Shown here: one piece after another, positions 22,045 to 64,000 of the stretch
Layout: each line of letters starts with the position of its first letter
How positions within the stretch are numbered: position 1 is the first letter of the stretch
From: Thermodesulfobacteriota bacterium
GTDB lineage: Bacteria > Desulfobacterota > Desulfarculia > JACQYL01
Reading direction: 5' to 3'
Length of the DNA stretch: 64,000 nucleotides
NCBI GenBank assembly: GCA_963675595.2
Contig: CAXXLZ010000002.1
Span: 1,600,001 to 1,664,000 of the forward strand
Program-made: the position numbers and the translations under genes
Notes under the pieces: generated by a model
The model's input: the letters and a program-made list of their open reading frames with translations, nothing else
Database searches by the model: none
What the model was told of the DNA's origin: nothing

Positions 22045-22051
22045 TTGTAAA

Positions 22052-41765: not shown

Positions 41766-41850
41766 TCAAGGACGTGAACAAGATTCGACTCCGGAAATGA
41801 GGCAACCGTCGTCAGACGGTTTTTTTGTCTCTTACGAAAGGAGAACGGTT

Positions 41851-45749: not shown

Positions 45750-46232
45750 GTGCTGTCCGGAGTCAAAAGTTCGGGAATCTCGGACGGTGGGACCACCTCG
45801 TCCATGTTCGGGCATCTGCTCTTGTGGCTTCAAGAGACTACCAGTCCGATTCTGGTCATGGCAACCGCTAATGCTATCTCGGGGCTGCCGCCTGAGTTTA
45901 TGCGATCGGGAAGGTTTGATGCCCTCTTTTTCGTGGATATCCCGAACAAAAGCGAGCGCGAAGCCATCATCGAAATCATGAATAAACGATACGGTTCGGA
46001 AATACCTTCCGAGTATGCAGCTGAACTCACTGAATGGACAGGCGCTGAGATCGAGCAATTGGCGAAAGATTCGCTCTTTGACGGCCTGGAAAACGCCCGT
46101 GATGCCATTGTTCCGCTTTCGAAAACCATGAAGGAGCAGCTCTCAGCGCTCCGGGATTGGGCTGAGACTCGGGCGAGGAGAGCGAGCCGAAGCGACGAAG
46201 AACCCGTGAAAACGATTCGGAGGATACGATGA
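45750..46232 (+). CDS. Ycf46-like AAA ATPase, exon 2
   Basis: SDGGTTS, ATAN, LPPEFMRSGRFD and WTGAEIEQ motifs. Confidence 0.9.
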   Translation: MLSGVKSSGISDGGTTSSMFGHLLLWLQETTSPILVMATANAISGLPPEFMRSGRFDALFFVDIPNKSEREAIIEIMNKRYGSEIPSEYAAELTEWTGAEIEQLAKDSLFDGLENARDAIVPLSKTMKEQLSALRDWAETRARRASRSDEEPVKTIRRIR

Positions 46233-47772: not shown

Positions 47773-48215
47773 GACCTGAAACCGAGGCTTCGGGGACCTC
47801 GTTCCCCGGAGCCGCAAGGCAAGTCCTTGTTTTCCAGACGGTCGATGGTTCTCGCTTGTGCTTCGCATCAAGACATCAAGGGAGATTTTTGATTCCGGGC
47901 AACACGCTCGTCTGTTTGGACGGATTATACCAGTAGGGACGGTGATGGCGCGCTCTTGTCCGCAGGAAATATCGATGACCAACGCATGGCCCGGATCGTT
48001 GCCTCAACTGGGCAAGTCCGCTCGACAGGTTTAAATACAGGAAGCGCGTAATATGCAGCATGGAAAGGTATTCATTGGATCCCGAGCCTTCGCCCACGAT
48101 ATCGGACTGGTGGCGGGCCAGGGAGAGAAGCAAGGACGGGTTTGTAATGTTTTTCTAAAACACGGAAGCCGGCATTGGGAACTGCAAAATCAGTCATCGT
48201 CATAGAAACACAACT

Positions 48216-48491
48216 ATGGAGAATTCAAAACAACAGGAGGAAGTCATGGGAAGGAATCGTGGGACAGAGTGCGAAGAGCAACTCGAAACAATGGACGATG
48301 AATTGTTGGAGGATAGCGAAGCCCAATACGAACGAAAGTCCGATCCTTTCTTCTGGTTGGCCGCAAATATCGAGAAAGTCTTCAGTCGACCCTCGGAGAC
48401 GGAATCGGTCACCGAAGACCAGTCCGATTCTGCGGTCGAGACTACCGGAAAGCCGGGGTCCAAGAAGAAGAAAAAGAAGAAGAGGATTTGA
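48216..48491 (+). CDS. Acidic hypothetical protein with poly-Lys tail
   Basis: Probable start ATG 48246 after AGGAGG. Confidence 0.45.
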   Translation: MENSKQQEEVMGRNRGTECEEQLETMDDELLEDSEAQYERKSDPFFWLAANIEKVFSRPSETESVTEDQSDSAVETTGKPGSKKKKKKKRI

Positions 48492-48699
48492 CTCGAAGAG
48501 ATGGGGATTGCCTTTTGGGGCTATGCGAGCCCCTCCTCATTGTGAGATCGCCGGAGTGAAATCAGCGTGGGACCTTGGCTTCAAGAGTCCTCGTCTGGGG
48601 ATAGTTGTATTGACAAGACCCACTTTAACGGACAGCGGCTCCTGATTCTCGAACTTCTGTCTTCGTTCGCTCCGGAAAATTAAATAAGTTGCTGAAACC

Positions 48700-49914
48700 T
48701 CAGGCATTGAGATTATCCGGGGTTAATGTGAATCTCTTTATCAGCTCCTGAATGCGGGATTGGTATTTGGCAACGTGCTGGCGTATCGTGGGCGTCCGCA
48801 GGAGTTGTTCTATGGTATCACGGGTGCAAGCATCGTATTTGGACATGATGCGTACGAACTCGACTGTGTAATCGACGCTCATTTTGAGTAGAGACCGACG
48901 GGCATCGTTGATTTGTTGGGGCTCAGTGGGCATCCACTTGGCACCGTGTTTGGCCAGAATGTCAATCATTCTAAGCGCTTCACGCGAACTATCTGAATCG
49001 ATATCTCTGTTATTGCGCTCGCGATCGAACCTATCATAGTCAAAGGACCATTGCATGGACTCTATGCAGTTCTGGATCAAGGACGATCCATGATCCTTTT
49101 GATCAATCGGGGTGAATCCCTGATCAAGTAATTCAACCAGGAAATCTGCTTTGTCCGCCCTGCAGGCAGTTCGCAGCAAGTCAATGGCAATTGGATGATC
49201 AGGGGATATCCTGATTTTTCTCAGTTTGAAAACCTCAAAATGCTGGTACAGTGCAGCGTACTCCAAGGCGCATAAATCTTCGTCCGGGTCTGGATCCAAG
49301 TCAGGTGAGTCCGGCCCCTTGGCAAACGGATCCGCACCGGCCCATAACAGCAATGACACCCATTTTAGGTTCCTTTCCTTGCAGTGATGACGTAATGCCA
49401 TGTTCACCTGATCCTGAAAGCTGGGGAAGCGGTCTTTGTGTCGTTTGAACACTCCCAAGGCAGTCCGGATTCTCCAGCACAGCGCCCTTGCCAGCGGATA
49501 ACCGGTTTCGACATCGGCGCCCTGATCAATGAAATATTCCATGATTGCTGGTTCCCATGAGTCAAACACCCGAGTCATTTTCACCGACCGGACGTCAGCG
49601 CCGTTTTCCACCAAAAGCTCGATCAAATCCAAGCGGCGCTTGCCCACTCCCTGCTCAAGGGCATTGTAGGACCCATCCTGAACGATCGCTCCCCCTTCGA
49701 GCAGCACCTGCACAAGGCTGTGAAAACCTTTTTCGATGGAGACCTGCAGTGGGCAATTCTTTCGAGCGTTTATTGGAGACGGAGGCGGCAGATTGATTGG
49801 TTTTCCGTCCATGATCCAGGCTTGCACATCAAACAGCCGGCCAGCCTTGCACAGATCGATTAGCGGTTTGACTTCATCGTAATCTTTGGCTCTTTTCCCC
49901 AAGCAAATTACCAT
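48700..49914 (-). CDS. Ankyrin-repeat protein
   Basis: Repeated PL..A/S....LL..GA(D) units. Confidence 0.8.
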   Translation of the reverse strand: MVICLGKRAKDYDEVKPLIDLCKAGRLFDVQAWIMDGKPINLPPPSPINARKNCPLQVSIEKGFHSLVQVLLEGGAIVQDGSYNALEQGVGKRRLDLIELLVENGADVRSVKMTRVFDSWEPAIMEYFIDQGADVETGYPLARALCWRIRTALGVFKRHKDRFPSFQDQVNMALRHHCKERNLKWVSLLLWAGADPFAKGPDSPDLDPDPDEDLCALEYAALYQHFEVFKLRKIRISPDHPIAIDLLRTACRADKADFLVELLDQGFTPIDQKDHGSSLIQNCIESMQWSFDYDRFDRERNNRDIDSDSSREALRMIDILAKHGAKWMPTEPQQINDARRSLLKMSVDYTVEFVRIMSKYDACTRDTIEQLLRTPTIRQHVAKYQSRIQELIKRFTLTPDNLNA

Positions 49915-49937
49915 CTGTTCAGACTATGGAATGATCT

Positions 49938-51797
49938 TTATTGCCTTGGCCGGGTTGTACATCGTCCGTCTCGGTCCCTCTTCGTCAGCAGCTTTTCAGC
50001 AAGAATTAGGGCGTCCACCGGCCAGAAACATTCCGGGCGGGGCTGATGCACGTCGGGAAGCCCCTCAATCGGACGGCATGCGAGGATCCGGTCTGTCCAT
50101 CTGGCAGGAACCGCTTCCCGGCCGTACACCGCACCGAGAAGAGCGCCGCATATGGCTGCGTTGGTATCCGTGTCCCCTCCTCGCATCACTGTGTCTACAA
50201 CGCCTTCCTCAAAGTTCGGAGCATGGAGGAGCTGCCAAAGGGCGTTCCAGAAAGCTATTAATACCCATCCTTGTTTGTGCACATAGCCTGGAGGCGGATC
50301 CGATGCCGCTCTTGTGATGGCGTCCATGAGCGAGTCGTCCACATCCGTATCCCTGGCTCGGTCGAGCACAAAGTTATAGACCTCTTTGGGTTTGGAGCCG
50401 GTACGGATTGTATGGGCAATGGCCACGGTGAATAAGCCATTGGCTTGCAGGCAAACCAGATGAGGATGGGTCAGTGCCGCATCCCGCCACGCCCACTCCC
50501 ACACCTGACTCAGATCAAAATTTGTCCCGAAAATACCCAACGGGCTCACGCGCATCAAGGCGCCATTGGCCTGACTATCCGGATTTGGTAGGCCGCGAAG
50601 ACCTCCGGCAACGGTCATGCCGCAGTCGAAAGGCCCCGAGTGAAGCCAGAACACATAGGCTTTACGGGCTTCCTCGGCATCGTATGTAACCTGTGTAATG
50701 AGGGTCCGAGCCAGCAGCGGCGCCATCTCGGAATCGTCCGTGGGCTGTCCGGCAATGGTGTTAAAGGTTCCTCCGTCTGCCAATTCCCTTAGCCCTTTGG
50801 GATATCTAACCTTTATCCATTCAGGGCGTTTGAACTCCACCAGACTGCCCAGCGCGTCCCCTGCCAGTTGGCCCAACAGGCACCCTTGTGCCCGGGAAAG
50901 CAGGCCGGCATCCGGGGATTCGCCGCTCGATTTCGGCCAAGTAAGCGAATAGGGACTGCGCGTTTCAGGACGATTGAAAACCTCGCTCCAATCTTGTTTC
51001 TCCAGATGATCCACGAGGGCCTTGCAGCCTCCAAACACACGGAAGCTGAAACTGAAGCTCAAATCCGCCGAATATCGAACCGGCCGTCCCCTCTCATCGT
51101 ACAAATCCCCTCCTGCCCCCATCAGAATCGCGTGTCCGCCGGCCAAGTCCCAAAACTCCGGACTATTGAGCGACACCGCCGCGTCGCCTTCACCCGCCGC
51201 CACGAGCGCCAGACGGTAGGCAATACTTGGCATTGCCCTATAACGCATGGGATAAACCAGTCGCGCATTCGCCTCCGCATTGTGGTCCGCATGGTGCGAC
51301 AAGAGAACCGTGCAGTTCGAGCTCGGTTCATCCGGCCAGGTTCTTACCACCATCCGGCCGTTTCGCAAGACCGGCCCGCCTTTTGTCCAGGCAATAAGAT
51401 CGCCGTTATCATCTGGAAAATTGTACGCATACACCACGCCCAACACAGGCTTGCTCTTTTCCAACAGAGCTATGGAGACCGCGGCACCCCTAAAACCCGA
51501 CATAAAAGCGCTTGTGCCATCGTTGGGGTCCACCACCCAATATCGTTCCTCTCCACTGCTACATATCCGCGCACGCCCCAATTCTTCTCCGAAAAAACCG
51601 TCTTCCGGAAACGTCCTATCTATCCGCCTTAGGATGAGCTCTTCCGCGATTTGATCCAGTTCCGCATGATGACTCGTCCCACGTGGACCGCCTTGGCGAT
51701 TGAATTCATCACGGAGGACAGAACCTGCAGAAAGTGCGGCTTCAGTGGCAGTGGTGAGTTCGGGGTCGTAAGACGCGTGGGAAGTCATAGTGTTCAC
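49938..51797 (-). CDS. Inositol monophosphatase - ADP-ribosylglycohydrolase fusion
   Basis: N-terminal GEE, WVVDPNDGT, WDLAGG; C-terminal GDALG, TDDSE, NGALMR, TH, GGDTDT. Confidence 0.92.
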   Translation of the reverse strand: MNTMTSHASYDPELTTATEAALSAGSVLRDEFNRQGGPRGTSHHAELDQIAEELILRRIDRTFPEDGFFGEELGRARICSSGEERYWVVDPNDGTSAFMSGFRGAAVSIALLEKSKPVLGVVYAYNFPDDNGDLIAWTKGGPVLRNGRMVVRTWPDEPSSNCTVLLSHHADHNAEANARLVYPMRYRAMPSIAYRLALVAAGEGDAAVSLNSPEFWDLAGGHAILMGAGGDLYDERGRPVRYSADLSFSFSFRVFGGCKALVDHLEKQDWSEVFNRPETRSPYSLTWPKSSGESPDAGLLSRAQGCLLGQLAGDALGSLVEFKRPEWIKVRYPKGLRELADGGTFNTIAGQPTDDSEMAPLLARTLITQVTYDAEEARKAYVFWLHSGPFDCGMTVAGGLRGLPNPDSQANGALMRVSPLGIFGTNFDLSQVWEWAWRDAALTHPHLVCLQANGLFTVAIAHTIRTGSKPKEVYNFVLDRARDTDVDDSLMDAITRAASDPPPGYVHKQGWVLIAFWNALWQLLHAPNFEEGVVDTVMRGGDTDTNAAICGALLGAVYGREAVPARWTDRILACRPIEGLPDVHQPRPECFWPVDALILAEKLLTKRDRDGRCTTRPRQ

Positions 51798-52529
51798 TTT
51801 GACAGTGTGGAAATGCTACTCGATTCTAACCTATCACAGAGGTCCGACCTACTTGGAAGTAGCAAGATGGATGGTTGGCGACGAGACATGGTAGGCCCTC
51901 GGTCACATAATCTTCCCGGCCATCTGCCGGAGTCGGCCGTCCCGGTCCATCAGAAAGATTCCGTTCGACATACATTGCCCCAATGGAAAGTCAGTTCGTT
52001 TTCCATTCGCTTGGAAGTCATGTTATATGTTGCGCCCTTTCCGATCAGGCGGGCGGCGCCCCAGTAAGACTGTCAAGAATGACGCCATCGATCCAACCAA
52101 CTGAAAACAAGACAGTTTCTTTCACACTCTGTCTCGGATTGCTTAGAAAAAAGCTGGCAATTCGTATGCTACACCGCTTGCTGCATTGCTAAAAAACTGA
52201 GCATCCTTTTTCTGACTGTTCCAAAGATGCATATTAGAATGGGATGTTTTCTTCAAGTTCCGCAATCCTGATTATTTAGTTGAATTGCTGTATTCATCAA
52301 AATAATTTCCAGTTAACAGCCAAATTGTACAGATTATGGATCCATGTCAAGATTCTTGAGTTTTTTATTGTATTCTCGAAAGCAGACTTGGGGGGTCCAG
52401 TTTCGTATCACGCCTCCAACGGCTAAATCCGCAAGTCTCCTTCACAACCTGAAAAAAAGGGCACCAATGCCTCACTCTGGGATGAAAAAAGGTTTGTTCT
52501 CCTGGATAAGAATAGGAAAAAGAGATCGT

Positions 52530-52973
52530 TCAAGCCGTTAACTCTTCTACTTCTACCGAGTCATTTGTCGGGAGACGAGCCTCTGAGACTTCGTAGCGCT
52601 CACTTCCCTTGTACTTCGGACGCATGCGCCGGAATTCCGCTGTCACAGGGACAAGTCGTATCAGGACGGTCTTGTTCTTGAGCGGTGAATGTTTCTTTAG
52701 CTCAGAGAGAAGGCTCACCTGACTGATCGTCCAGGTCATTTCTTTTCCCTCGTATGAAACGTCAAACCAGAGATCGTGGGCGTTACTGTCGAAATTGTTC
52801 TCGGTCTCTTTCCGAGGACCGTCGCTCAAGAAAGTCACTTCGAAACCTTCACGTTTCATTTGTTCTGTCGGTTTGAAAAACGGTGGCAGATCGCCACTGT
52901 TTCCCATATTATCCCAGCTTGGGCAGCCGGTATGGTGTGTGCCTGATGTGGCATATTTTTGTCCATTTGCCAT
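52530..52973 (-). CDS. Hypothetical protein, possibly OB-fold/SSB-like with acidic tail
   Basis: SD GGAGGTG; beta-rich pattern; divergent from cdc6. The fold call is a guess. Confidence 0.55.
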   Translation of the reverse strand: MANGQKYATSGTHHTGCPSWDNMGNSGDLPPFFKPTEQMKREGFEVTFLSDGPRKETENNFDSNAHDLWFDVSYEGKEMTWTISQVSLLSELKKHSPLKNKTVLIRLVPVTAEFRRMRPKYKGSERYEVSEARLPTNDSVEVEELTA

Positions 52974-52989
52974 GGTTTGCACCTCCGAA

Positions 52990-53244
52990 TCGGGTTTTTT
53001 CGATTCAAAGATTGAGAATAGTAGCTTTTATTTATAATTCTTTCTATTATTGTTCAAATTTACCAAAAGGCCATAGAGTGTGGGAAGATTTCTTGTGGAA
53101 ATCAAAAAATATTTTCGCAGGCATGCTCTACTTACACTTTGTCGCTACTGCAAAGTGGTTTAGTTTATAAAGTTTTCTTGAAATATTAATCTTTTATATT
53201 ATATTATATAATTTCTATATAGAAATAAATAATAATAAGGAAAA
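52990..53244. other. AT-rich segment, left half of a putative origin
   Basis: Almost pure A/T at 53180-53244; ORB-like TTCCACAAGAAAT on the minus strand at 53088-53100. Confidence 0.55.
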
Positions 53245-54794
53245 CTAGAGTTTAGAGCCATGCGGGGCAGCCAAGTTTGTATAGAAGAGCATAGTTCTCC
53301 AAGACGGGTTGAATACCGTTGACGTAAGGCTTTGAGATGATTGACTGAACACGGATATCAGGCAGCGCGCCCCAAGTCTTCCGGAGAATCGGTGAATTCC
53401 GGTTGGAATTTTTTGGATTTCCGGTTCCACATGGCTCGCACGTTTAAGTTGCCGAAAAGACGACCGATGGCTGCGGCCATCCAGCCGGCGGTGGCGGGCC
53501 TGTTCTTTCTCCAAGGGATTGGAAACATCGTATAGGCCGCGTTGGGACCCAGGCAGAGCGCCAAGAGCCGTGGCAAGCCGTAGGCCAGGCACAAGATCAT
53601 GCTCCATCGAGCCAATGTCTGCCGTGTCTGCTGCCAAGCATTTTTCAGTCCGAACAGGTGCTTGATCTCGTTGAACATGGGCTCGGTCCACCATCGTCGT
53701 GCATAGCGTGTAATCACTTCCGCGCCGTCCATGTCGGGATCGGTACTGATCAGAAGATGCCAATCGGACCAAGAGGGGTTGTCGGACATAAACCGGCACC
53801 ACACGATCTTGCACAACCGGCCGTCCAGGAAGCGGACTTTGGCTTTGGTTTGGTAGAACTGGAAAACTCGTTCCGAGCCGTAGGCAAAGAGGGTTTTCTC
53901 CACCGGACGACAGAATCGTCCGATGTTTTCCAACGTGAGTTTTTCCCCATACTTTCTGGGTCTGCCCCGTTTCTTCCGAGGCGGATTGTCCGGAGGCAAA
54001 AACAGGGCGGTATCTTTGCGGACTTGGCCGATGACCGTCACACCATCGCGAATCAGGGGAACCACCAGGGAGCTTTTCATATACCAGGCATCGAGCAGCA
54101 GAATAATGAGAAAGCGATCCGGCAGCCAAGTCATGAGAACGGACATCAAGAGCCGCGCCGCGTCCAGTTTGGTGGTGTTCCCTTTTTTGCGGATGAGCCG
54201 AAACAAGAGGGGAAACGCGGCTACCCGGCCCTTGTGGCGGCAGATGACAGCCAGAGAAACCCGAAGCTGTCCCCACAGGAATTTGGGGCGGTTGGGCCGG
54301 TGCGCGTGATCGTAATGCCAACCGGCGCAGGGAGCTTTCTTGGACGATCTGGGCAAAGGGAAGTCGTCTATGGCGAACTCGATGGATCGGTTTGGAATCC
54401 GTTTCAGGATCAGGCGCATCCATTGCCGGGCTAGCGCAAGCCATTGGAATCGGCCCTTTTCGATGGCCTTGTAATAGGCGGTCCAGGACAACTGGGGCCG
54501 AACGGCCAGAAGCGCGGAAGAAATATGGCCGCCGCGGCAGACCATACATCCCATCAGGAGTTCCAGAAGAGTCGGAGCTATTCTGCACGGAACGGCCTGA
54601 AATAGAAAGGAAATCCACTGCGATAGGAGCATAAGTGCTTGAGCCGTCGAATCCATTGGTTGACCCCCAAGGAAAGGTTTCTTTCCTTAAAGGGCAGCCA
54701 AAGGCGGCCGCGCATCCGCGCGGCAATGTCAAGTACTTTGTTGTCTTTATTCGCATTTTTCCTATACCAAGGGTCGCCAGACTCTAAACTCTAG
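53245..54794 (-). mobile_element. IS4/IS701-like element, copy 2 (intact)
   Basis: IRs CTAGAGTTTAGAG; 9-bp target duplication TAAGGAAAA at 53236-53244 and 54795-54803. Confidence 0.93.
53358..54656 (-). CDS. IS4/IS701-like DDE transposase
   Basis: AIDD, LLDAWY, RGRPRKYG and YARRWWTEPMFNEIK (YREK) motifs. Confidence 0.92.
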   Translation of the reverse strand: MDSTAQALMLLSQWISFLFQAVPCRIAPTLLELLMGCMVCRGGHISSALLAVRPQLSWTAYYKAIEKGRFQWLALARQWMRLILKRIPNRSIEFAIDDFPLPRSSKKAPCAGWHYDHAHRPNRPKFLWGQLRVSLAVICRHKGRVAAFPLLFRLIRKKGNTTKLDAARLLMSVLMTWLPDRFLIILLLDAWYMKSSLVVPLIRDGVTVIGQVRKDTALFLPPDNPPRKKRGRPRKYGEKLTLENIGRFCRPVEKTLFAYGSERVFQFYQTKAKVRFLDGRLCKIVWCRFMSDNPSWSDWHLLISTDPDMDGAEVITRYARRWWTEPMFNEIKHLFGLKNAWQQTRQTLARWSMILCLAYGLPRLLALCLGPNAAYTMFPIPWRKNRPATAGWMAAAIGRLFGNLNVRAMWNRKSKKFQPEFTDSPEDLGRAA

Positions 54795-54832
54795 TAAGGA
54801 AAAGAAAACATCACCAAAAACTGAAACTGAAA

Positions 54833-54915
54833 GTTCCACCGGAAACTTTCCCTCTCTCAAAATCCGGTTCACTTTCAAGTGACAACAGGAATTTGCACCG
54901 AAAACTATTTATAGA
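54833..54915 (+). promoter_or_regulatory. ORB-like boxes and BRE-TATA-like motif upstream of cdc6
   Basis: GTTCCACCGGAAAC at 54833-54846; GTCACTTGAAA on the minus strand at about 54873-54883; CCGAAAAC-TATTTATAG at 54898-54914. Confidence 0.5.
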
Positions 54916-54934
54916 TGTCCTGTAGAAGAATCGC

Positions 54935-56209
54935 TTGAAAATGTCCGGTGGAGATCATTCAGAAGCTTCCCTGCAATTCATTCGCACATTGCATGACTCA
55001 CAGAAGAATCATCGCCTTATTTTGAACCCCAACTATTTGGACGACGAGAAGTTGCCTGAGGAAGAGCGGACTTCGGTTCTGAAGGAGATTTTTGATCGGA
55101 ATATCCGGGAAGAGCAGCTGAAACGCATCGTCTGTCATCTGACTCCGATCCTGGACGGCGATCATCCGAGTTCATTACTGGTCTTCGGTCCTACGGGTTC
55201 AGGGAAAACGGTTTCCCTCATTCACGTCCTTTCGACGTTTCAGGAATATTGCCGAACTCAGTCCGTCGGGTTCCAGTATAGATACGTGGACTTGACCTCC
55301 CCCAGGTCTTCTTTCGGAGCGTTGAACGAGCTTGCGAGAGCCCTCAATGAATCGATTCGCACCTACAGGAAAGGCATTCCCATCGATCAGATGCAGGAAC
55401 GGATCATCGAAGAGCTGAACCGATTCCAGGGGTTCTTGTGCCTCTTGATTGATGAGGCGGATAATATCAAGCCCAATGCGGATGAATTTATCACCTTCCT
55501 TGGAAAGACCCTTCCAAGAAAGATTCCCTGCCGGTTGGTTCTCATCATGGTCACGAACAAACTGAACTGGGACAAGATGCTGGACCCGCGGATTCTGAGT
55601 GTTCTCAAGAAGACGGACATGCTCTTTGAACCCTATAACGCCTTGGATTTGATCGAAATCCTGAATCTTCGAGTGGAAAAGGCTTTGGATAAGTCAAAGG
55701 TGGACGAGGCCGCTGTCCGAAAGATCGCGGCGTTGGCGTCGCGAGAAACCGGTGATGCGAGAAAGGCGGTTGAACTTCTCTCAAAGTCGGCCAAAGTCGC
55801 ACAGGAAACCGGCGGCAGGCTGTCCGAAGAAATCGTGGATCTGGCTGAGCACAGATTGGAAATGGACAAAACAGAGGAAATGGTTCGGGCTCTCGCTCCG
55901 CAGCAGAAACTTGCGCTTCTTTCCTGCTACGATCTTCTGGCCAAGACTTCGAAACGGGTCACTACGGGCGAGGCCTATGATCGATACGCCAATTTCTGCG
56001 AGTTGGAACGGGTCAGGCCGCTCACACAACGAAGGTTCTCGGACATTATCGGTTCCCTTGACCTCTACGGACTGATCAACGCCCGGCTGATATCACGCGG
56101 CAGGTATGGCCAGACAAGAGAAATCTCAAGGTCGCTTCCCAAGGAAACCCTCAGCCGGTTCTTATCAAGAGAAGGATTCGGTTCCGGGTCGTTCGGCGGT
56201 CTTCATTGA
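54935..56209 (+). CDS. cdc6: Orc1/Cdc6-family replication initiator (AAA+ with winged helix)
   Basis: REEQL, VFGPTGSGKT, LIDEAD, DPRILS, FEPYNA, GDARKA, TTGEAY and PLTQRR..LDLYGLI..SRGRYGQT motifs. Confidence 0.92.
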   Translation: MKMSGGDHSEASLQFIRTLHDSQKNHRLILNPNYLDDEKLPEEERTSVLKEIFDRNIREEQLKRIVCHLTPILDGDHPSSLLVFGPTGSGKTVSLIHVLSTFQEYCRTQSVGFQYRYVDLTSPRSSFGALNELARALNESIRTYRKGIPIDQMQERIIEELNRFQGFLCLLIDEADNIKPNADEFITFLGKTLPRKIPCRLVLIMVTNKLNWDKMLDPRILSVLKKTDMLFEPYNALDLIEILNLRVEKALDKSKVDEAAVRKIAALASRETGDARKAVELLSKSAKVAQETGGRLSEEIVDLAEHRLEMDKTEEMVRALAPQQKLALLSCYDLLAKTSKRVTTGEAYDRYANFCELERVRPLTQRRFSDIIGSLDLYGLINARLISRGRYGQTREISRSLPKETLSRFLSREGFGSGSFGGLH

Positions 56210-56224: not shown

Positions 56225-56371
56225 CTATCCGCCTATCTTCACCCGTGTTGTGAACTTCCGGTGGCACTTGGTGCACATCCGGAGTCTGACTTTTCCCTGG
56301 GCAAGGGGCCTGTATCCTTTCCAGTGGCTTTGGGTTGCGCCGCAGTACGGGCATTTGTAGGGTCTTGGCAT
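56225..56371 (-). CDS. CPxCG Zn-ribbon microprotein (48 aa)
   Basis: MPRPYKCPYCG..CTKCHRKFT; SD GAGGTGA. Confidence 0.7.
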   Translation of the reverse strand: MPRPYKCPYCGATQSHWKGYRPLAQGKVRLRMCTKCHRKFTTRVKIGG

Positions 56372-56405
56372 CGGTATCACCTCGGGACTTGGTAAGGCCC
56401 TGGTG

Positions 56406-56454
56406 TATATAAACTTTTCTTTCCTCTGCGGTCTTTGAGCGAAAGGTTTATATG
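56406..56454. promoter_or_regulatory. Back-to-back BRE-TATA-like motifs
   Basis: Minus strand AGAAAAG-TTTATATA (56420-56406); plus strand CGAAAGG-TTTATATG (56440-56454), first T 30 nt before ATG 56477. Confidence 0.55.
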
Positions 56455-56476
56455 AAGGCTTTGCTTCCCAACAAAG

Positions 56477-57292
56477 ATGGAATGCGGAATACCGGAACCG
56501 GCTCACTCTGGCCAACACTCAGCAATAGTCTTGGACTTGGAAGAGCCGGAGGCGGCCGTCGGCCGGATTATCTGGGAGTTTGTCTTCGGCGTTGCTCAAT
56601 ACAAGGCGTCGGCCCGAGACTACTACTATGACGTTATGCTGGCGGATCATCCGTGTCCTGTTTGCGGCGAAAATCTGCGGATGCTTGAACCCGGTTCGGC
56701 GGCCTGTGCAAGCGGTCATGAACTCGACCCCACAGTGGTGTTTCAAAAGAGCGGCTGCTGCGGAGCAAAGCTGGTCAGGCGGTGTCTTCATTATGCGTGC
56801 GCTTCTTGTGGGAAGACCGTGCCGTCCCGGTTCTTGTTCGATGAACGGGTCTTCGACAAGGTCTATTTCCGGCAACGGATGGCGGAGTCCAGGGCCAAGA
56901 CGATAAAACGAAAAGAAATGATAAGGCTCGCCCGTCGAGAAGAGCGGTCGCGCGGGTTGACGTTACTGGAGGAACCGCAGCTTGATCGTTTGCCTGGTTT
57001 TACTGAAGCGTTGGCAGGCTTCATCGGCTTTGATGTGGGAGTTTGGGACGAGGAGTTCTCCCTGACTGGGAATCTTCCTGGGCTGTCCCGGTACAGACGC
57101 CATATCCTGGATTCAGTGAACAGGTATCGACAAATCATGTTTTCCAGGATCGATCTCCTGATCGATGATGCCCGAAGAGATCGGGCGATGCGCTTTGTCG
57201 CTCTGATCTTTCTGCTTCAGGATGGGGAAGTGCGGGTCACACAATACAGTTCGGATATTGAAATCGAGCCGCCCTACAATGAAATTGACTGA
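56477..57292 (+). CDS. Multi-Zn-ribbon protein with ScpA/kleisin-like C-terminal motif
   Basis: CPVCG, CASGH, SGCCG and CASCG; C-terminal RFVALIFLLQDGEVRVTQ..DIEI. Confidence 0.65.
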   Translation: MECGIPEPAHSGQHSAIVLDLEEPEAAVGRIIWEFVFGVAQYKASARDYYYDVMLADHPCPVCGENLRMLEPGSAACASGHELDPTVVFQKSGCCGAKLVRRCLHYACASCGKTVPSRFLFDERVFDKVYFRQRMAESRAKTIKRKEMIRLARREERSRGLTLLEEPQLDRLPGFTEALAGFIGFDVGVWDEEFSLTGNLPGLSRYRRHILDSVNRYRQIMFSRIDLLIDDARRDRAMRFVALIFLLQDGEVRVTQYSSDIEIEPPYNEID

Positions 57293-57647
57293 AAAGGACA
57301 AGGAGTTCATTGAAAAACTGAAAATGCTGATCGACGATAGTGATCTCAAGATTGAGCTGACGGAAAACGGCCTGAAGCGGTTCGTGTTGCGCAGAAATTA
57401 CGGCGACAAAATCGAACGGATTTTTGGATTAACGCGCCAGGGAATCAGGTGGCGGTTCCAGCGGCTGCTGGGAGATATCTACGTTTCTGCGTACACCACG
57501 ATCTATTGGGTTGAGAGCCTGTTAGGGACAGAACTCAGAACGATGGCGCTCGAGATCGCAAAGCAAAGGGTCGAACTTCGAAAGAAAGCCCTGAAAAGGA
57601 CTGGATGCAATAAGTTGGCCTTCGTCCAGCGCCGGCACAAGAGGTGA
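57279..57647 (+). CDS. Hypothetical HTH-like protein
   Basis: IERIFGLTRQGIRWRFQRL; overlaps the upstream stop. Confidence 0.65.
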   Translation: MKLTEKDKEFIEKLKMLIDDSDLKIELTENGLKRFVLRRNYGDKIERIFGLTRQGIRWRFQRLLGDIYVSAYTTIYWVESLLGTELRTMALEIAKQRVELRKKALKRTGCNKLAFVQRRHKR

Positions 57648-57650
57648 TGC

Positions 57651-58067
57651 CTGATCGTCAGCACAAAAATCGAACTCAGTCATAACAAGATCGCGAGAAT
57701 CCGGGACCTGGATGAACTCGCTGCTATCCTATTCCCCGGCAACAAGAATCATCAGAGAGTTTTTCTCGCAATCTTCATCGAACTCAAGTACGCTGAGCAT
57801 GAATTTCTAGACACTCTTCAGCCGTTGTGCGACAAATACGGTTTTTCACCGAGAATCCTCGAAACCGTCCGAAGCAAGATGCGGCGTATGGGGCTCATCG
57901 ATCACGTTTCCCGATTCAACAAGCGGCACGGCTATCGGGAAGGATGGGTTTTTTCCAGCAGGTTTGGGAAGTCATTGGAACAGCTTGCCGGCATCGCGGC
58001 GTCGGCCAGAGAGCGTAAAGGCGTGATGCAGGAGAAGAAGGACCGGGGGTTGTTTCGCCTCATGTAA
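57651..58067 (+). CDS. Hypothetical wHTH-like protein (non-ATG start)
   Basis: Frame is open from CTG 57651 after GAGGTG; SPRILETVRSKMRRMGLI..GWVFS. Confidence 0.6.
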   Translation: MIVSTKIELSHNKIARIRDLDELAAILFPGNKNHQRVFLAIFIELKYAEHEFLDTLQPLCDKYGFSPRILETVRSKMRRMGLIDHVSRFNKRHGYREGWVFSSRFGKSLEQLAGIAASARERKGVMQEKKDRGLFRLM

Positions 58068-58204
58068 TTGATACTTTTGGGAAAAACTTCCGCATAGGGG
58101 GTCTTATCAGATGTCTTATGAGGCATGAGCCGCTGAATGGATTTCATAGGTTGGAGTATCCTGCCTTCGAATAGACCATTACCCTCTAATTCCAGAAAAG
58201 CGAT

Positions 58205-60778
58205 ATGAGAATCACCTTCGACCCTGCTTTTGATCAAGGTTCCTGGCCCGGCCCAATCGCACAAGGCCACGCCGCATCCGGTGAAATCTGGTTAGGGCCC
58301 TCCGGCCTTTTGAGCATCCTTGAGACCATGACCGGTCTGGCCGGCCCCACCCTGCCTCCCGCAGTCAGGGCTGCCGAATTGGTTTCGGAAGTCCGAAGCA
58401 TCAAGGGCTTCTGGAAAGACTCCGCTCAGGTGGACCCTTTCGGGACCGCAAGGAGGCTCTTGGAGTGGCGCGATTTTCTTTGGACACAAGGTTGGCGCGG
58501 CCAACCGGTCAGCCTGCGGCTGGAGCAATTGGCGGAGGTTACCTACAAGGCCTCGCCCGGTTTTCCCGATCGGTTTCTTGAGGTAGCAGGAACCATGCAG
58601 GGTGCCGCCAATGTGATTGAGGCACTCACACTTCTCGTTCCGGTTGGTCGTCTGAATCCCGCATTGCGGACAGCAGTGCAGGCTCTTGAGCGGACGGGAA
58701 CCAAAGTCATCGAGAAGACCTTGGAACCGGCCTCACCAAAGGGCGACTTGGGCGCATGCAGAACAGTGCCCTTCAGACCCATAGGGGATGGATCCCTTCA
58801 ATTGCTGCGGCCCGCCACTCACAGCATGGCCGCCCACGAACTGGCCGCTTGGCTCTCCAATCTTGAGTCACTGGAACGTACAGTCATTATCGGTCCCGAC
58901 AGCGTGCTTGACGAGGCACTCCATCGATTTGATCTGCCCACGACGGGCGCAGGCATACCAGCCTCCGATCATGCCTTGCTTCAGATTCTGCCCCTGACTC
59001 TGGCCATGGCCTGGGATCCGCCTGATCCTCAGAGGGCTCTCGAACTCCTGATGTTGCCCAACAGCCCCGTTCCCAAAGGGATCGGTCGCAGGTTGGCTCA
59101 TGCGCTGCAGGATTATCCCGCGGTGGGATCGGATGCCTGGAATGAAGCACTGGAAGAAGGTCTGAACCAGTTCTCAGACAAGAAAGATCGGAAGCGCTTG
59201 AAAGACCGAATGGATGCCATCTTTGCGAGGCGCATCCAAAGCCGGAATTATCCGGTGACCGAGATCAAGGCTCGGATCGATCTTCTCCGATCCTGGGCCA
59301 AAGGCAGGATGGGGGAGGATGCGTCGGAACGTGCATGGCAGGCTCTGATCGCTCAGTTGGAGAACTGCATGCGCATTGCCGAGCTATCGGGCCTTTCTCA
59401 CTTCACTGCTCCACAGATACGCCGAATGCTTTATGAGATCAACGAGGCGGCGGGCTCTTTTCCTCTTTACGAGGCCCAAGCAGGTTTGGAAACCGTTGGG
59501 GCGCCGGAGTGCATCGCTGAACAAGCGCAGAATGTGATTTGGTGGTCGTTCAATCGGGGCGCCGCGCCGGTCATAGCTTCCGACATGCTTACCGCCAAGG
59601 AACGTTCAGGGCTTGAGCAAGTAGGCGTTGTACTCCCTCGCCCGGGTGATGAAGCCGTGTGGGCCGCGGAGAGATGGCAACGGCCTCTCATGCTGGCGGG
59701 TTCAAATCTGATTCTCGTCTGTGCTCGGCGAGGCCCCGACGGTGAAGAGCAATATCCGCACCCATTGTGGGACGAGCTTGCCGGTCGGGTCGAGGAATCC
59801 ACGGGTTTGAAGGAATTGGAGCGTGAATTCCTGATTTCCCATAACGGGCTTACCAGGACCATTCGGCCGATCAGGAGCCTTCCCGAGCCCGTATGGGAAT
59901 GGGGCGTTATTGCGGGTGCCGTGGCCAAAAGACCGAAGGAGTCACCCAACAGTCTGTCGAGTTTGATTTCCTGCCCGTTCAGTTGGGTCGTTCGCTATTT
60001 GGGCAACCTATATGGCGGGGCTACGGCCACTTTGGATTCGCCCGAAAAACTGCAAGGCCGGCTCATACACGAGATACTCACCCGCGTCCTTTCCAATCCC
60101 GGCCAAACCCCCGAAGAAGCTGCCGATGATGCAACCCTGCGTTTTGGTTCGGAAGGACCGCTCATGGCCGCTCAACTCTTCTTGCCCGGCTACGAAGATA
60201 TTCGAGCGGAGGTGAAAATGGCTCTCCGCACAGCGGCTCATCGAGTATTTCGTTTGATCAAGGAAGGAAGATTCACGGTACGAGCCGTCGAACAGACCTA
60301 TGCTACGAAATCCCGTTCCCTGGGAATAGAGATTGAAGGCCGACCCGACTTGGTACTGAAGAACCCGGACGCAATCGTCGATTTCAAGCGCGGCGGAGTC
60401 AATTATCGTAAGGAAGAGCTGGCCGGCGGCACAAGCCTCCAATTAGCCGTATACGGTCATTTGATTCGGAAGAATGAAAAGACGACCTTTCCTCCTGTTG
60501 CCTATTTGATGCTCAAATCCGGTCAGGTGATCACGGTGGACCCCAAGGCCTTTCCGGACGCACGGATCATTGGAGGTCCTTCACCCGAAGAGACTTGGAA
60601 GGGGACTCAGGAGTCCTTTAAGCGGATTTGGGATGAAATGAAGGCTGGCAAAGTACGGGCATCGGGAAACGATCCCGACGGCCCTCCAAAGAGTCAACTC
60701 GACGATGGACGACTTTTTCTGAAGCCCTGCGAATTCTGCGACTTCGCCGTTCTTTGTGGTCGGGCCTTCAGCGAATAG
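58205..60778 (+). CDS. AddB-like inactive helicase + PD-(D/E)XK nuclease
   Basis: SPNS..SCPF, GRLIH, GRPD, VDFK, LQLAVY and CEFCDFAVLC (Fe-S staple pattern). Confidence 0.85.
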   Translation: MRITFDPAFDQGSWPGPIAQGHAASGEIWLGPSGLLSILETMTGLAGPTLPPAVRAAELVSEVRSIKGFWKDSAQVDPFGTARRLLEWRDFLWTQGWRGQPVSLRLEQLAEVTYKASPGFPDRFLEVAGTMQGAANVIEALTLLVPVGRLNPALRTAVQALERTGTKVIEKTLEPASPKGDLGACRTVPFRPIGDGSLQLLRPATHSMAAHELAAWLSNLESLERTVIIGPDSVLDEALHRFDLPTTGAGIPASDHALLQILPLTLAMAWDPPDPQRALELLMLPNSPVPKGIGRRLAHALQDYPAVGSDAWNEALEEGLNQFSDKKDRKRLKDRMDAIFARRIQSRNYPVTEIKARIDLLRSWAKGRMGEDASERAWQALIAQLENCMRIAELSGLSHFTAPQIRRMLYEINEAAGSFPLYEAQAGLETVGAPECIAEQAQNVIWWSFNRGAAPVIASDMLTAKERSGLEQVGVVLPRPGDEAVWAAERWQRPLMLAGSNLILVCARRGPDGEEQYPHPLWDELAGRVEESTGLKELEREFLISHNGLTRTIRPIRSLPEPVWEWGVIAGAVAKRPKESPNSLSSLISCPFSWVVRYLGNLYGGATATLDSPEKLQGRLIHEILTRVLSNPGQTPEEAADDATLRFGSEGPLMAAQLFLPGYEDIRAEVKMALRTAAHRVFRLIKEGRFTVRAVEQTYATKSRSLGIEIEGRPDLVLKNPDAIVDFKRGGVNYRKEELAGGTSLQLAVYGHLIRKNEKTTFPPVAYLMLKSGQVITVDPKAFPDARIIGGPSPEETWKGTQESFKRIWDEMKAGKVRASGNDPDGPPKSQLDDGRLFLKPCEFCDFAVLCGRAFSE

Positions 60779-60848
60779 GGGCGGTGAAAATTTCTTCCTT
60801 TCCCGGCTAAGCTTCAAAGAGCGAGCCCTTTATAAGGTACTGATGATC

Positions 60849-63800
60849 ATGACCAACATCCATATCATCACCGCCAGTGCGGGCAGCGGCAAGACCTATC
60901 GCCTGGCAACGCTTCTTCATCAAAGCATTGCTTCCGGGAGTGTGCGGCCGGAAGCGGTGATTGCCACGACCTTTACGAAGAAGGCGGCAGCCGAACTACA
61001 GGAACGCGTGCGCCGTAGGCTTATCCGAGAAGGGCTCACAGTGGAGGCCAACCGATTGGGGGCCGCGCGCATGGGAACGGTCAACGCCGTCTGCAGCAGG
61101 CTCGTGATGGATTTCGTCTTTGAGAAAGGGCTCTTTGCCGAGACCGTTGTCTTGGACGAAAACGCGGCAGGCAGGGAGCTCAGGCGTGCTCTTTCCTCTG
61201 TTGTATCGGGCAGTGTTTCGGCCCGCATGGCGGAACTCTCCAGCAGACTTGAAGCCTTTGAGTGGACCGGCGTTGTGGAGTCCCTGATTCAATCCGCTAG
61301 GTTTAACGGACTGAAGGAAGCCGACTTAAAAGCATCCAAGCAAAAAAGCATCAAAAGCATAAGCCAATTGATCGGAAAGCCCTTGGGTCCCGACCGAGAT
61401 TTCGACGGCGAACTCCAGACCGCTCTTTCTGATTTCATCCGCAGTGTTGACTTGGAGGAAGACCAGACCGGTGGTACCGCAGGAGCGGTTCAGAAGGCTG
61501 AGGCCTGCTTGAGCAGGCTTCGCGAGGGACGGCCTCTCCCCTGGAGCGATTGGTTGCGATTGGATCGCATTAAGGTAGGCAAGAAATCAGCGGTTCATGC
61601 GGAGCAACTTCGACAGGTGGCGGCACTTCACGACAATCACCCAAATCTCAGGAAGGATCTGACCGAAGCCGTCGAGCTCGTTTTCGACACGGCCATCAAC
61701 GCACTCAAATCCTATCAGGAGCATAAACGACTTTGGGGTGTCATGGATTTCTCCGATCAGGAAGTTCTGGCACTTGAGCTTCTCCAAGAAAAGGAAGTCG
61801 TGGACCGGTTGAGTGACGCCATAGATATCCTTCTCGTGGATGAGTTTCAGGATACAAGTCCAATCCAGTTGGCTATCCTTCTACGTTTGGCGTCACTGGC
61901 CAAGAAGACGATCTGGGTCGGAGACCAGAAGCAGTCGGTCTATGGTTTTCGCGGGACGGATCCGGCCCTGATGGATTCGTGTATTCAGCACATCTTTCAG
62001 GATCATGCTCCGGAAACCTTGAACAAGTCATGGCGAAGCCGACCGCCCCTTGTACACGTCAGTTCGGCGGTTTTTGCCCGTGCCTTTGCATCACACGGCA
62101 TCCCTGAAGAACGGGTAATGTTGGAGCCCGCCTTGGAATCGGATGATCCTGAATTGGGGCCTTGTATCGAATGGTGGGAAACCGCCTCAAAGAACCAGTC
62201 AGAGGACGCATCGGCCGTTGCAGGCGGAGTTCGTGATCTTCTCCGCGACGATGAAGTGAAGGTCAGAGACAAAAAAGAAGGGAAAACAAGGCGGATAAGG
62301 CCCGGAGATATCGGCATCCTCTGCCGAACAAACGACGCTTGCGCAAAAATGGCCGAAGCGCTGGAATCCATTAATATCCGGGCGGTGCTTCCCAAAGCGG
62401 GACTCATGAAAACGCTGGAAGCGATGACCGTGCAAGCGGGTCTACGGTTGTGGGTCGATCCGAAGGATACCCTTGCAGCCGCCGAACTGGCGCGGATCAT
62501 TCACTACCCGGACAAATCCGATGAGTGGTTGAAGCAGTTGCTCGAAAAGCCGGGAGCAGAGGCATTTGGGCAGCTGCCCGAAGCCGCCGATATTGTGAAT
62601 TCCGCTCGGGAGAAACCCGGTAGCGGCGTTCTTCAGGTACTCGATGCCGTCTACAGGATCATCGATATTCGTGAACTATGTCTCGCTTGGGGTGATGCGC
62701 CCAAAAGGCTGGCAAATCTGGATGCGCTATCGGCCCATGCCCGGAGTTACATCGCCTATTCGGCCGCCGAAGGGATCGGTTGCACGCCTGCGGGACTGCT
62801 CGGGTATTTCAATGAACTGGCTGCCAACGAGGAAGATTCGCAGGCACAGCTGGCCGTTGAGGACGCGGTTAACGTGGTGACCCTGCACAGCGCCAAGGGC
62901 CTGGAATGGCCGGTTACAATTCTGACCCAGATCGGAAAGAAATTCGAGCCGAACCCTCTCGGAGTAAAGGTCATAAGCGACTGGACGAATTTCGACATCA
63001 ACAATCCATTGGCCGATCGTTGGCTTCGTTACTGGTTGTTTCCTTACCATCCAAAAAACAAGGAGACGCCCTTTAACTGCCGAATGGAAGAAGATGCTTC
63101 AATGCCGGGAATCAAAGACAGTCACCAGAGGCAGGAACTTCGGCTCCTTTATGTGGCGTGGACCCGTGCAAGGGATCGTTTGATCTTGGCGGGACGAAAA
63201 GACGATTTTAGGGAAGGTATCCTTGGGCTGTTGAACGACGAAAAGGGCGCATGGCTGCTTTCAGAGCCCCAACACGGCAAGGCCGTATGGGCCGGACAGG
63301 AGCTGGAAATACATACCCGCGCGCTCGATCCTGTTGAACCTGAAACCCGATCGTTTGCTCAAGGACAAGATTACCCGATCGTCACCGGAAGTCGGACTCA
63401 TTTTCCCTCAAGGCTCAGCCCATCATCCATGGACGCGCAAGGCAAGGCGGGTCAACTGATTCAGATCGGTCCTAGAATTCCCATTTCAGGAAATCCGGAC
63501 ATGGAATCGGTCGGGAACGCCTTTCACTACTTCTTTGCCGCCGATCGTCCACAATATGAATTAAAGCAGCGAATGGCCCTGGCTGAGGGAATCATAAAGC
63601 GTCTGCAAATCACCGGTGCTGTAATCGGCTCGGATATTGTCGAATCCGCAGACAACCTGGCTATCTGGGCCAATCAGGAATACCCCGAGGCTGTATGGCG
63701 CAGGGAGTGGCCCCTTATCCAACGTCTGCCTGAAGGCACTGTTGTATCGGGATTCTGCGATCTCCTGCTCAACGCCGGAAACAGGATAGCCGTGATCGAT

Positions 63801-63968: not shown

Positions 63969-64000
63969 CTCAAGGGCATCCTGAATTCAACCATGACCCT

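Follow-up and report, generated by a model that had tools for sequence, protein, structure and literature searches.

A candidate replication module of the archaeal Orc1-1/ORB type on an integrated mobile element of Desulfobacterota

We analyzed a 64,000-nucleotide stretch of DNA (the window) from a Thermodesulfobacteriota bacterium (assembly GCA_963675595.2, contig CAXXLZ010000002.1, positions 1,600,001 to 1,664,000), in which an orc1/cdc6 gene and the origin-like DNA upstream of it lie on a repeated, mobile unit of the chromosome. With moderate confidence, we interpret the pair as a replication module that belongs to a plasmid-like, integrated mobile element of Desulfobacterota and that follows the design of an archaeal origin, with an Orc1-1 initiator and its origin recognition boxes (ORBs). 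Such elements may start their own replication in the archaeal way. Textbooks and recent reviews, one of 2025 among them (PMC11880632), set DnaA in bacteria apart from Orc1/Cdc6 in archaea and eukaryotes. We observed the protein family, the conservation of its motifs, the architecture of the locus, its mobility context, and purifying selection on the gene. An earlier note on this DNA had proposed an archaeal-style replicon module on a bacterial integrative element. The type of protein, the boxes, the host, and the mobile context stood up to analysis; replication itself we infer.

Judged from its sequence, the product of the open reading frame (ORF) is a full, true Orc1/Cdc6 that is nearest to the origin-binding Orc1-1 type. 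The NCBIfam model TIGR02928 matched it over profile positions 20 to 365 of 366 with 256.5 bits, against a cutoff of 181.3, and all four Orc1 copies in the genome exceeded this cutoff. Pfam revealed an AAA_22 domain (E = 4.4e-13), a Cdc6_lid (E = 2.5e-12), and a Cdc6_C winged helix (E = 1.6e-24). Together with the motif alignment below, these matches confirm the full-length protein with AAA+ and C-terminal winged-helix parts that the earlier note had described. The protein remained under every cutoff of NCBI's archaeal ORC1 equivalog subfamilies, of which NF001625 came top (248.5 versus 501 bits). Among solved structures, the best full-length matches were Sulfolobus Orc1-1 (2qby_A; E = 4e-52) and Aeropyrum ORC1 (2v1u_A; E = 3e-51), both of which are Orc1 structures crystallized on origin DNA. 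Orc1-3 (E = 1.5e-32) and Pyrobaculum Cdc6 (1fnn; E = 1.4e-20) matched more weakly.

In an alignment of 16 sequences, the AAA+ residues of Walker A (G83-G86-G88-K89-T90), Walker B (D171-E172), sensor 1 (T205-N206), and sensor 2 (GDAR; G271-D272-A273-R274) were invariant or nearly so. The glycine of the initiator-specific motif (ISM) aligned with G120 of the Sulfolobus protein (Sso), with Gly-Ile here for Gly-Leu. Within the winged helix, TQRR and GRYGxT were invariant or nearly so and aligned with Sso R341 and R365. Mutation of the ISM Gly-Leu, of Arg341 in the helix-turn-helix (HTH), or of Arg365 in the wing is described as weakening the binding of Sulfolobus Orc1-1 to the mini-ORB (PMC3089459). 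The residues that matter for this binding are kept in our protein as Gly-Ile (ISM), TQRR (HTH arginine), and RGRYG (wing arginine). At its N terminus, the clade has an extension of its own of about 55 residues (LILNPDYLDDEKLPEEER...IREKQL), which the archaeal sequence in the alignment does not have and which may be an adaptor to bacterial partners. This extension (residues 1 to 55, encoded at 54941-55105 of the window; NPDYLDDEKLPEEER...) is conserved and acidic.

The gene is present four times in the genome, with 98 to 100% amino acid identity, on a repeated unit of 25 to 31 kb, and it is under very strong purifying selection in this bacterial setting. Among the four copies, dN/dS ranged from 0.007 to 0.042 (dN, 0.002 to 0.009; dS, 0.22 to 0.31), and the values for the nearby gene p271 were far looser than those for orc1 (0.25 to 0.40). 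Given such dS values with so small a dN, all four proteins must have been kept functional, and the copies are not recent duplicates.

Upstream of orc1, two ORB-like boxes lie on either side of an AT-rich stretch (coordinates of all features are given in Table 1). The boxes, minus on the left and plus on the right, and the low GC content of the DNA between them agree with the near-pure A/T stretch between oppositely oriented boxes read from this DNA before. With a 19-nt box pattern and at most three mismatches, the window gave six matches, compared to 0.42 expected, and none of 100 shuffles reached six. The right box was at -107 in all four copies, which varied there at only two central bases. 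An extended right-box pattern gave three matches in the 6.79-Mb genome, each at -107 of one of the three other orc1 copies; it missed the right box of the window, where one base of the extension differs. Each 25- to 31-kb element carries four or five strict boxes, two or three of which are in the orc1 upstream region. The extension of the left box is directed away from the AT-rich stretch. In archaeal origins, the winged helix contacts the ORB dyad, which generally points toward the unwinding element, and this would match the layout here. Weaker boxes had also been noted close to the gene. Extra boxes do exist there, but they are the two start-proximal ones on the minus strand; the site near 54873 is the small palindrome CACTTTCAAGTG, and no ORB-like box was found at 54892.

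The AT-rich stretch itself is distinctive. In a paralogue that is free of the insertion sequence (IS) described below, about 120 bp between the boxes have a GC content of 0.15 to 0.17. The genome (6.79 Mb) has the 23-mer TTTCTATATAGAAATAAATAATA at four sites, each of them upstream of a different orc1 copy. The palindrome TTTC-TATATA-GAAA (53212-53225 in the window) is kept in many loci of the clade, down to 40 to 43% protein identity, and may be a melting site, a promoter, or the site of a second protein. Several related loci also have, downstream of the right box and ahead of the start codon, palindromes of the form CACT-N-AGTG, which resemble CACTTTCAAGTG.

We then compared the region with those of homologues in three other genomes (61 to 64% identity) and in 80 metagenomic loci. 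In the three genomes, inspection by eye gave the same order throughout: a minus box, AT-rich DNA with a palindrome of the TTTCTATATAGAAA type, a plus box, and, at the start codon, a further minus box. A strict pattern, T[CT]CC[AC]N3GA[AC]A, was applied to the clade loci of at least 40% identity (n = 39), of which 35 had at least 350 nt of upstream DNA. Among these 35 (40 to 65% identity), a left minus-strand box was present in 25, a right plus-strand box in 19, both in 16, and a start box in 13; 29 loci had a box of any kind, and 6 had none. The density of boxes was 40-fold higher upstream of the gene (63 in 16.8 kb; 3.74/kb) than elsewhere in the same loci (20 in 212 kb; 0.094/kb). An AT-rich 50-mer, mostly of 0.72 to 0.96 AT, lay between the left and right boxes. 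With a looser core, left, right, and start boxes were found in 27, 30, and 23 of the 39 loci, respectively, with the consensus TTCCAyNGGAAAyTTACyCAC, and the left box of the window is of the same class and in the same place as those 27 left boxes. In distant loci (30 to 34% identity), boxes were present in 5 of 27. The start-proximal box is out of frame, just before the ATG, in two of the genomes (G014 and G027), which places the constraint on the DNA and not on the protein. Thus, as the earlier reading would have it, the boxes are conserved next to homologues, and their inverted order, the AT-rich stretch, and the adjacency to the gene are kept with them at 40 to 65% identity.

Three further observations concern these loci. 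In L026, L035, L037, L041, L043, L047-L049, L057-L059, L066, and L070-L072, the left box and the AT-rich stretch have a second conserved noncoding motif between them, approximately GACGACGCTTATAAATC; the window copy lacks it. Inside the Cas4-like nuclease gene of the element, a lone ORB-like core (window 35277-35295, minus strand; TTCCATAGGAAA, with TTCCACAGGAAA in the other copies) occupies the equivalent place in all four element copies, 15 to 20 kb from orc1; it may reflect coding conservation or a distant Orc1 site. In genome G105, three of four orc1 matches (L013, L015, and L017) have one stop codon in the matched stretch. The ORFs still look full-length, which probably places the stops upstream of the true starts.

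How closely does the conserved box resemble an ORB? The Pyrococcus ORB/mini-ORB core is given as TTCCA(G/C)TGGAA, with an invariant "TTCC" and "GAA" described as needed for Cdc6 binding (PMC1904270). The 12-nt core of the clade, TTCCAyNGGAAA, equals this core, with TTCCAGTGGAAA exact in some loci, and it aligns with the mini-ORB TTTCAGATGAAAC of the Sulfolobus Orc1-1 binding assays. Those boxes that have the sequence TTTTCCACA would also suit a relaxed DnaA-box pattern. A DnaA-box reading was rejected, since conservation centers on the dyad TTCCAyNGGAAA and the sequence of many boxes is TTCCATCGG or TTCCAGTGG.

In the window, the AT-rich stretch is interrupted by the IS. The three other orc1 loci have the uninterrupted site ...AATAATAAGGAAAAGAAAAC... 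with a single copy of the duplicated 9 bp, and therefore the IS is a true insertion and the IS-free reconstruction is correct; the same empty sites bear out the earlier call of this IS and its 9-bp duplication. Rejoining the intergenic region across the IS was also right; with the IS removed, the distance between 52982, where the divergent gene starts, and the orc1 ATG is about 0.36 kb, where about 0.4 kb had been estimated. The region is longer in the other three copies because of an extra pRiA4-ORF3-like gene there. The insertion now separates the right box and orc1 from the left box and the bulk of the AT-rich DNA by 1.55 kb, and the candidate origin of the window copy is therefore probably disabled. 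Three intact, IS-free copies of the module are present elsewhere in the genome.

The IS is present in 14 full-length genomic copies of at least 98.7% identity, that of the window included, and the genome as a whole is heavily colonized by IS elements. Further IS copies are at 20159-22046, 22050-23602, and 39935-41766 of the window. The second of these is the same IS as the one upstream of orc1, in the opposite orientation; one family among the three has about 25 near-identical genomic copies, and the third has about a dozen.

TABLE 1 Features of the orc1/cdc6 locus, in window coordinates
Feature	Position	Strand	Details
Divergent 150-aa "beta-rich" gene	52530-52982	-	Conserved module neighbor
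Left ORB-like box TTCCACAAGAAATCTTCCC	53082-53100	-	1 mismatch to 19-nt pattern
AT-rich stretch, left part; candidate unwinding element	53141-53244		GC 0.18 versus 0.535 for the window
Palindrome TTTCTATATAGAAA within AT-rich stretch	53212-53225		Conserved
Target-site duplication, left copy TAAGGAAAA	53236-53244		9 bp
IS	53245-54794	-	13-bp terminal inverted repeats; DDE transposase 53358-54656 (-), Pfam DDE_5, E = 6e-17
Target-site duplication, right copy TAAGGAAAA	54795-54803		9 bp
Right ORB-like box TTCCACCGGAAACTTTCCC	54834-54852	+	1 mismatch; 107 nt before ATG
Small palindrome CACTTTCAAGTG	54870-54881		Not ORB-like
Start-proximal box, degenerate	54914-54927	-	Read from the sequence
Start-proximal box, clear	54935-54953	-	3 mismatches; over start codon
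orc1/cdc6	54941-56209	+	422 aa from ATG; 424 aa from TTG at 54935
Small zinc-ribbon protein, about 48 aa	56225-56371	-	Inside ORF 56225-56518
p271	56477-57292	+	CxxC zinc ribbons (two); C-terminal domain winged-helix-like
p141	57222-57647	+	Small conserved protein, MKLTEKDKEF...RQGVRWRF; no family match
p145 homologue	57657-58067	+	tblastn match 57657-58055; listed ORF 57825-58067

By its predicted gene content, the host is a bacterium with DnaA (two strong matches, 151 and 146 bits) and DnaB (369 bits) and without a real MCM. The window is within a 4.73-Mb contig of a 6.79-Mb, 98%-complete genome (G000), and the host belongs to the same class as the closed 4.83-Mb chromosome of a Desulfarculia metagenome-assembled genome (MAG; G014). 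DnaA, DnaB, the lack of MCM, and the class all support the bacterial host for which the earlier note had argued. One of its arguments, an ACG arginine anticodon, fell away: ARAGORN found no tRNA in the window, and Rfam found only a group II intron. The orc1 copies lie inside contigs of 1.78 and 4.73 Mb with bacterial genes as flanks. Two more orc1 loci are in the closed G014 chromosome, where a single-protein scan of the genome contigs gave only these two. At the right border of the element, unitigs of two sequencing runs bridge 58027-58229, and the loose ends at 58055/58056 correspond to the flanks of the other copies. Neither joints nor circular junctions turned up in the assembled contigs of the runs, a result that speaks neither for nor against excision. 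The continuity of the contig, on which the earlier reading hung, is thus secured by the four loci in megabase-size contigs, the two in the closed MAG chromosome, and the unitigs across the right border, which exclude a chimera.

In a search of 5.8 billion clusters, 8000 candidates were scored and 787 proteins were found at E ≤ 1e-3. Among the best 120 of these 787, three had 88 to 93% identity, one partial protein had 99%, and the rest had 61 to 69%; organism names on four of them were Thermodesulfobacteriota (three) and delta proteobacterium NaphS2. Across 1.84 billion representatives at 50% identity, the identity went down in steps of 55, 48, 42, and 41% and then to 35% or less. An unrooted FastTree tree of 122 full-length rows placed the query in a 21-row group with an SH-like support of 99, apart from 99 others. 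Of 20 tree representatives that we looked up, 3 were named (Acidilobus, Micrarchaeota, and Thermoplasmata), and all 3 were outside the group. These proteins appear to form a bacterial (Desulfobacterota) Orc1 clade that is separate from all sampled archaeal Orc1. Since the tree is unrooted and mostly unlabeled, no donor can be named; the module may have been acquired from archaeal neighbors in anoxic sediments. The distribution of orc1 is patchy: among 41 relatives it was found in 3, and among 401 sampled genomes of the phylum in 4 (G000 is in both counts), usually in two to four copies. The automatic annotation of NCBI already names such proteins in Thermodesulfobacteriota. Full-text literature searches, from whose scope most subscription journals and supplementary files fell out, gave no paper on Orc1/Cdc6 in bacteria. 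The existence of the gene is therefore on record, and an analysis of bacterial Orc1/Cdc6 was not found in the literature searched.

Next, we consider the element. Its four diverged copies (dS, 0.22 to 0.31), 25 to 31 kb long, share a defined right border at 58055/58056, with divergence exactly after ...GGACCGGGGGTTGTTT, inside the last codons of a small gene. These features mark it as a mobile element, in agreement with the earlier reading. In the window, the unit runs from about 27 to 28.6 kb to 58055. It encodes a RadC-like JAB protein, DUF3150, and a HerA/FtsK-like ATPase accompanied by a Cas4-like nuclease. A group II intron interrupts its AAA ATPase gene, the window copy lacks the pRiA4-ORF3-like gene of the other copies, and the rest is variable cargo. 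Genes of the RadC, DUF3150, pRiA4-ORF3, and HerA/FtsK-like kinds are typical of plasmids and integrative elements.

Some observations on the element and its surroundings stand apart from the module. The group II intron in the AAA ATPase gene spans 42265-46232 (reverse transcriptase/maturase/HNH ORF, 43798-45660; Rfam RF00029, 45660-45749), and the intron region is present twice in tandem in one other element copy. Specific to the window copy is its cargo at 47770-52530, where 48700-49914 encodes an ankyrin-repeat protein and 49938-51797 a protein in which inositol-monophosphatase-like and ADP-ribosylglycohydrolase domains are fused; the other three copies have a LuxR-type regulator and an FkbM-type methyltransferase at this place, and an ADP-ribosylglycohydrolase also flanks the unit of G014 described below. 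Outside the element (58200-64000), an AddB-like PD-(D/E)XK protein (58205-60778) and an AddA/UvrD-like helicase (60756-63968) form a pair that is duplicated at G000:C2:4717514-4723314 with 96% identity. A repeat of 150 to 340 bp (87 to 94% identity) is found at 12376-12716 and 27043-27289 of the window and at the left edge of another element copy (C2:928431-928866), and it may mark an attachment site or a tandem island array.

Several small genes travel with orc1. Homologues of the beta-rich gene lie beside all four orc1 copies (72 to 73% amino acid identity), in the unit of G014, and in locus L030; the protein matched no Pfam, NCBIfam, PHROG, or PADLOC family, and a weak Atlas lead to phage single-stranded DNA-binding protein (SSB)-like clusters stayed under 0.9. 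The zinc-ribbon protein matched Pfam Zn_ribbon_NrdR-like just under the cutoff (E = 5e-6), and homologues follow orc1 on the opposite strand in many related loci. After orc1, p271, p141, and p145 also often follow in related loci. Of 86 loci examined, 18 have p271 next to orc1; many of the 86 are too short for neighbors to be seen. The structural model of p271 has a pLDDT of 76.5 and weak winged-helix fold matches (best E = 5e-3), and it has no family in Pfam, NCBIfam, PHROG, or PADLOC. For the module as a whole, neither PHROG nor PADLOC returned a specific match. In the window, the N-terminal part of p145 is in an open frame (57645-57825) with no ATG, GTG, or TTG before 57825, which points to either an unusual start codon or a lost start.

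The loci of relatives are informative about the kind of element involved. In G014, a 7.0-kb unit is present twice with 93% identity and extends from the origin-like region through orc1 and its partners to Replic_Relax (PF13814; E = 3.9e-18), a family that has been equated with MOBC relaxases (PMC5357655). No other replication initiator was recognizable in this 7-kb unit, and its borders showed neither a target duplication nor a shared 9-mer at the ends. Replic_Relax is also beside five metagenomic relatives, and in the subgroup of 40 to 44% identity, orc1 adjoins it. In this subgroup, orc1 and Replic_Relax are flanked by tyrosine integrases (three in L071 and one in L057) or, in L060, by ArdC-like and UvrD genes. 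Among 47 complete short metagenomic contigs, none had the terminal overlaps of a circular contig (0/47). The presence of Replic_Relax and tyrosine integrases near relatives suggests that the family resides on small integrative, mobilizable, plasmid-like elements, on which Orc1 appears to be the sole recognizable candidate initiator.

On the basis of these observations, we infer binding, melting, helicase loading, and autonomous replication as follows. Orc1 would bind TTCCAyNGGAAA(yTTACyCAC) boxes that face each other across about 100 bp of 15 to 20% GC and would deform the DNA through its winged helix and ISM, helping the AT-rich stretch to open. Because the host lacks MCM, Orc1 would have to hand the open DNA to a bacterial helicase, for which the host DnaB is the simplest candidate. 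The 55-residue N-terminal extension or p271, p141, or p145 could serve as adaptors, and the boxes at the start codon would provide autoregulation. A predicted complex of Orc1 with the host DnaB scored 0.00, which gives no verdict and is evidence neither way. We propose only tentatively the full form of this scheme, namely, that a family of Desulfobacterota elements replicates from an ORB-type origin fired by Orc1/Cdc6 in bacteria without MCM, with the initiator rewired to DnaB or another helicase.

A replication module is favored by the kind of protein and its conserved DNA-contact residues, by boxes that have the ORB core, are arranged as ORB-AT-ORB next to the gene, and are nearly absent from the rest of the elements, by very strong selection, and by the setting on a mobile element. 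Other results weigh against it. No MCM was found: the best PF00493 match in the host genome, at 35.6 bits, was a weak AAA+ match of the kind seen in all 14 control genomes, so that the absence noted before for the window extends to the whole genome (PF00493 ≤ 35.6 bits). Nor did any helicase gene travel consistently with orc1 among the loci examined. The boxes have no G-string at their ends, the extension consensus yTTACyCAC being without a G run, as the earlier note had also seen; a G-string is described for the ORBs of haloarchaea (PMC4010727) and can also be seen in the ORB1 and ORB2 oligonucleotides of Pyrococcus (PMC1904270). Among the scanned ORFs of this genome's element, there was no integrase or relaxase, and the element has been seen so far only inside chromosomes or on linear contigs. 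PLSDB returned 429 plasmid records that match Orc1, all below 60% identity; the 40 best and 60 evenly sampled rows belong to what we take, by their names, to be archaeal genera, and no bacterial plasmid was among these 100 of the 429 rows. For archaeal plasmids, by contrast, carriage of Orc1/Cdc6 genes is the norm, a precedent in favor of the replication module. IMG/VR contained no relative among its viral contigs, and the five INPHARED records were all haloarchaeal viruses (23 to 25% identity). Finally, sigma-70-like promoter matches lie inside the AT-rich stretch, which puts the right and start boxes at operator-like places.

The last point leads to the strongest alternative, which we regard as a real but clearly less likely possibility: an Orc1-centered regulatory switch. 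Here, Orc1 would be an ATP-dependent, site-specific transcription regulator of the life cycle of the element (induction, excision, and transfer), acting with p141, p145, and p271, and the boxes would be operators around a shared divergent promoter instead of an origin. Precedents exist. Orf8 of the archaeal provirus SNJ2, an Orc1/Cdc6-like protein, is described as a DNA-damage-activated regulator in a three-gene module with a winged-helix repressor; it activates a gene that relieves this repressor of the integrase, and such modules are reported as common in proviruses (PMC10123103). Sulfolobus Orc1-2 is likewise reported to be a regulator that binds promoter motifs (PMC6061795). SNJ2 Orf8 and Orc1-2 share with our system an Orc1/Cdc6 fold on an integrated element, small winged-helix proteins, and integrases in relatives. 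The promoter-like sites, the boxes over the start codon, and the small, DNA-binder-like conserved neighbors, one of them winged-helix-like, would all suit a switch, as would the integrases near relatives. However, Orc1 is far nearer to Orc1-1 (E = 4e-52) than to the SNJ2 protein (23% identity; E = 8e-13) or 1fnn. The boxes carry the ORB core and form an inverted ORB-DUE-ORB array (DUE, DNA unwinding element) beside the initiator gene, an origin-like layout unlike that of SNJ2 and the defining one of archaeal origins as described in PMC4010727. Boxes are, moreover, nearly absent outside the orc1 upstream region, so that no second target promoter is visible. The replication module and the switch are compatible readings, given that initiators commonly autoregulate.

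We consider it improbable that the protein has some other AAA+ role, such as a defense or conflict ATPase, a partition or centromere binder, or an accessory factor of DNA transfer. The HerA-like and Cas4-like genes of the element also occur in defense systems, Orc1 had weak nSTAND/NACHT-type Pfam matches under the cutoffs, and winged-helix centromere binders were among the weak fold matches of p271. Outside this genome, however, HerA and Cas4 are unlinked to orc1, PADLOC gave at best a P-loop match on Orc1 (E = 7.5e-5) and nothing on five conserved neighbors, and the full Orc1/Cdc6 architecture is kept together with its DNA-contact residues. An artefact (contaminating archaeal DNA or a chimeric assembly) or a relic (a gene gained by chance transfer and now in decay), to which the nearest large Atlas clusters (at least 93% archaeal in 10 of 10 among those listed) and the IS in the window copy might point, is already refuted by the four copies in megabase contigs with bacterial flanks, the two in the closed MAG chromosome, the unitigs across 58027-58229, the NCBI records naming Thermodesulfobacteriota and strain NaphS2, and dN/dS values that exclude decay, and its likelihood is negligible.

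How does the proposed replication module compare with known replicons? With the archaeal Orc1-1 and its ORB or mini-ORB origins (Sulfolobus oriC1 and oriC2, Aeropyrum, and Pyrococcus oriC), it shares the family, domain order, DNA-contact residues, a 12- to 13-nt core of the form TTCC-N4-GAAA, and inverted boxes around an AT-rich stretch beside the initiator gene. It differs from them in its bacterial host, the lack of MCM and of a G-string (with yTTACyCAC instead), the N-terminal extension of about 55 residues, its separate clade, and its position on a mobile element and not at a chromosomal origin. Orc1/Cdc6 replicons also occur in haloarchaea, methanogens, and Thermococcus, on plasmids, megaplasmids, and integrated elements; there too, the initiator is mobile-borne and a genome can have several copies, but the identity to their initiators is only 23 to 32%, and p271, p141, p145, and the MOBC relaxase have no annotated counterparts on them. 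As far as is known, the hosts of those replicons all have MCM. A plasmid-borne initiator, repeats next to an AT-rich stretch, and autoregulation are likewise features of the iteron plasmid initiators (RepA, RepE, and pi), which are not known to have an AAA+ module and rely on the DnaA and DnaB of the host. None of the iteron initiator families in Pfam or NCBIfam matched Orc1. A relationship between the WH1 domain of iteron initiators and the Orc1/Cdc6 winged helix has been proposed (bioRxiv 10.1101/2024.09.03.610885).

Our data place Orc1/Cdc6, together with matching origin-like DNA, on many bacterial mobile elements that are without MCM, its normal client. If the module is in fact a switch, then the SNJ2-type Orc1 switch would extend from archaeal viruses to bacterial elements. 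If the tentative replication scheme above is true, it would represent the first Orc1-dependent replicon in Bacteria, a cross-domain hybrid of the two initiation systems. A module that fires would show that an initiator can be recoupled to a foreign helicase, which bears on how these systems came to diverge and on the long-standing view of mobile elements as vehicles that carry replication proteins from one domain to another, and it would offer a new type of replicon for genetic tools in Desulfobacterota.

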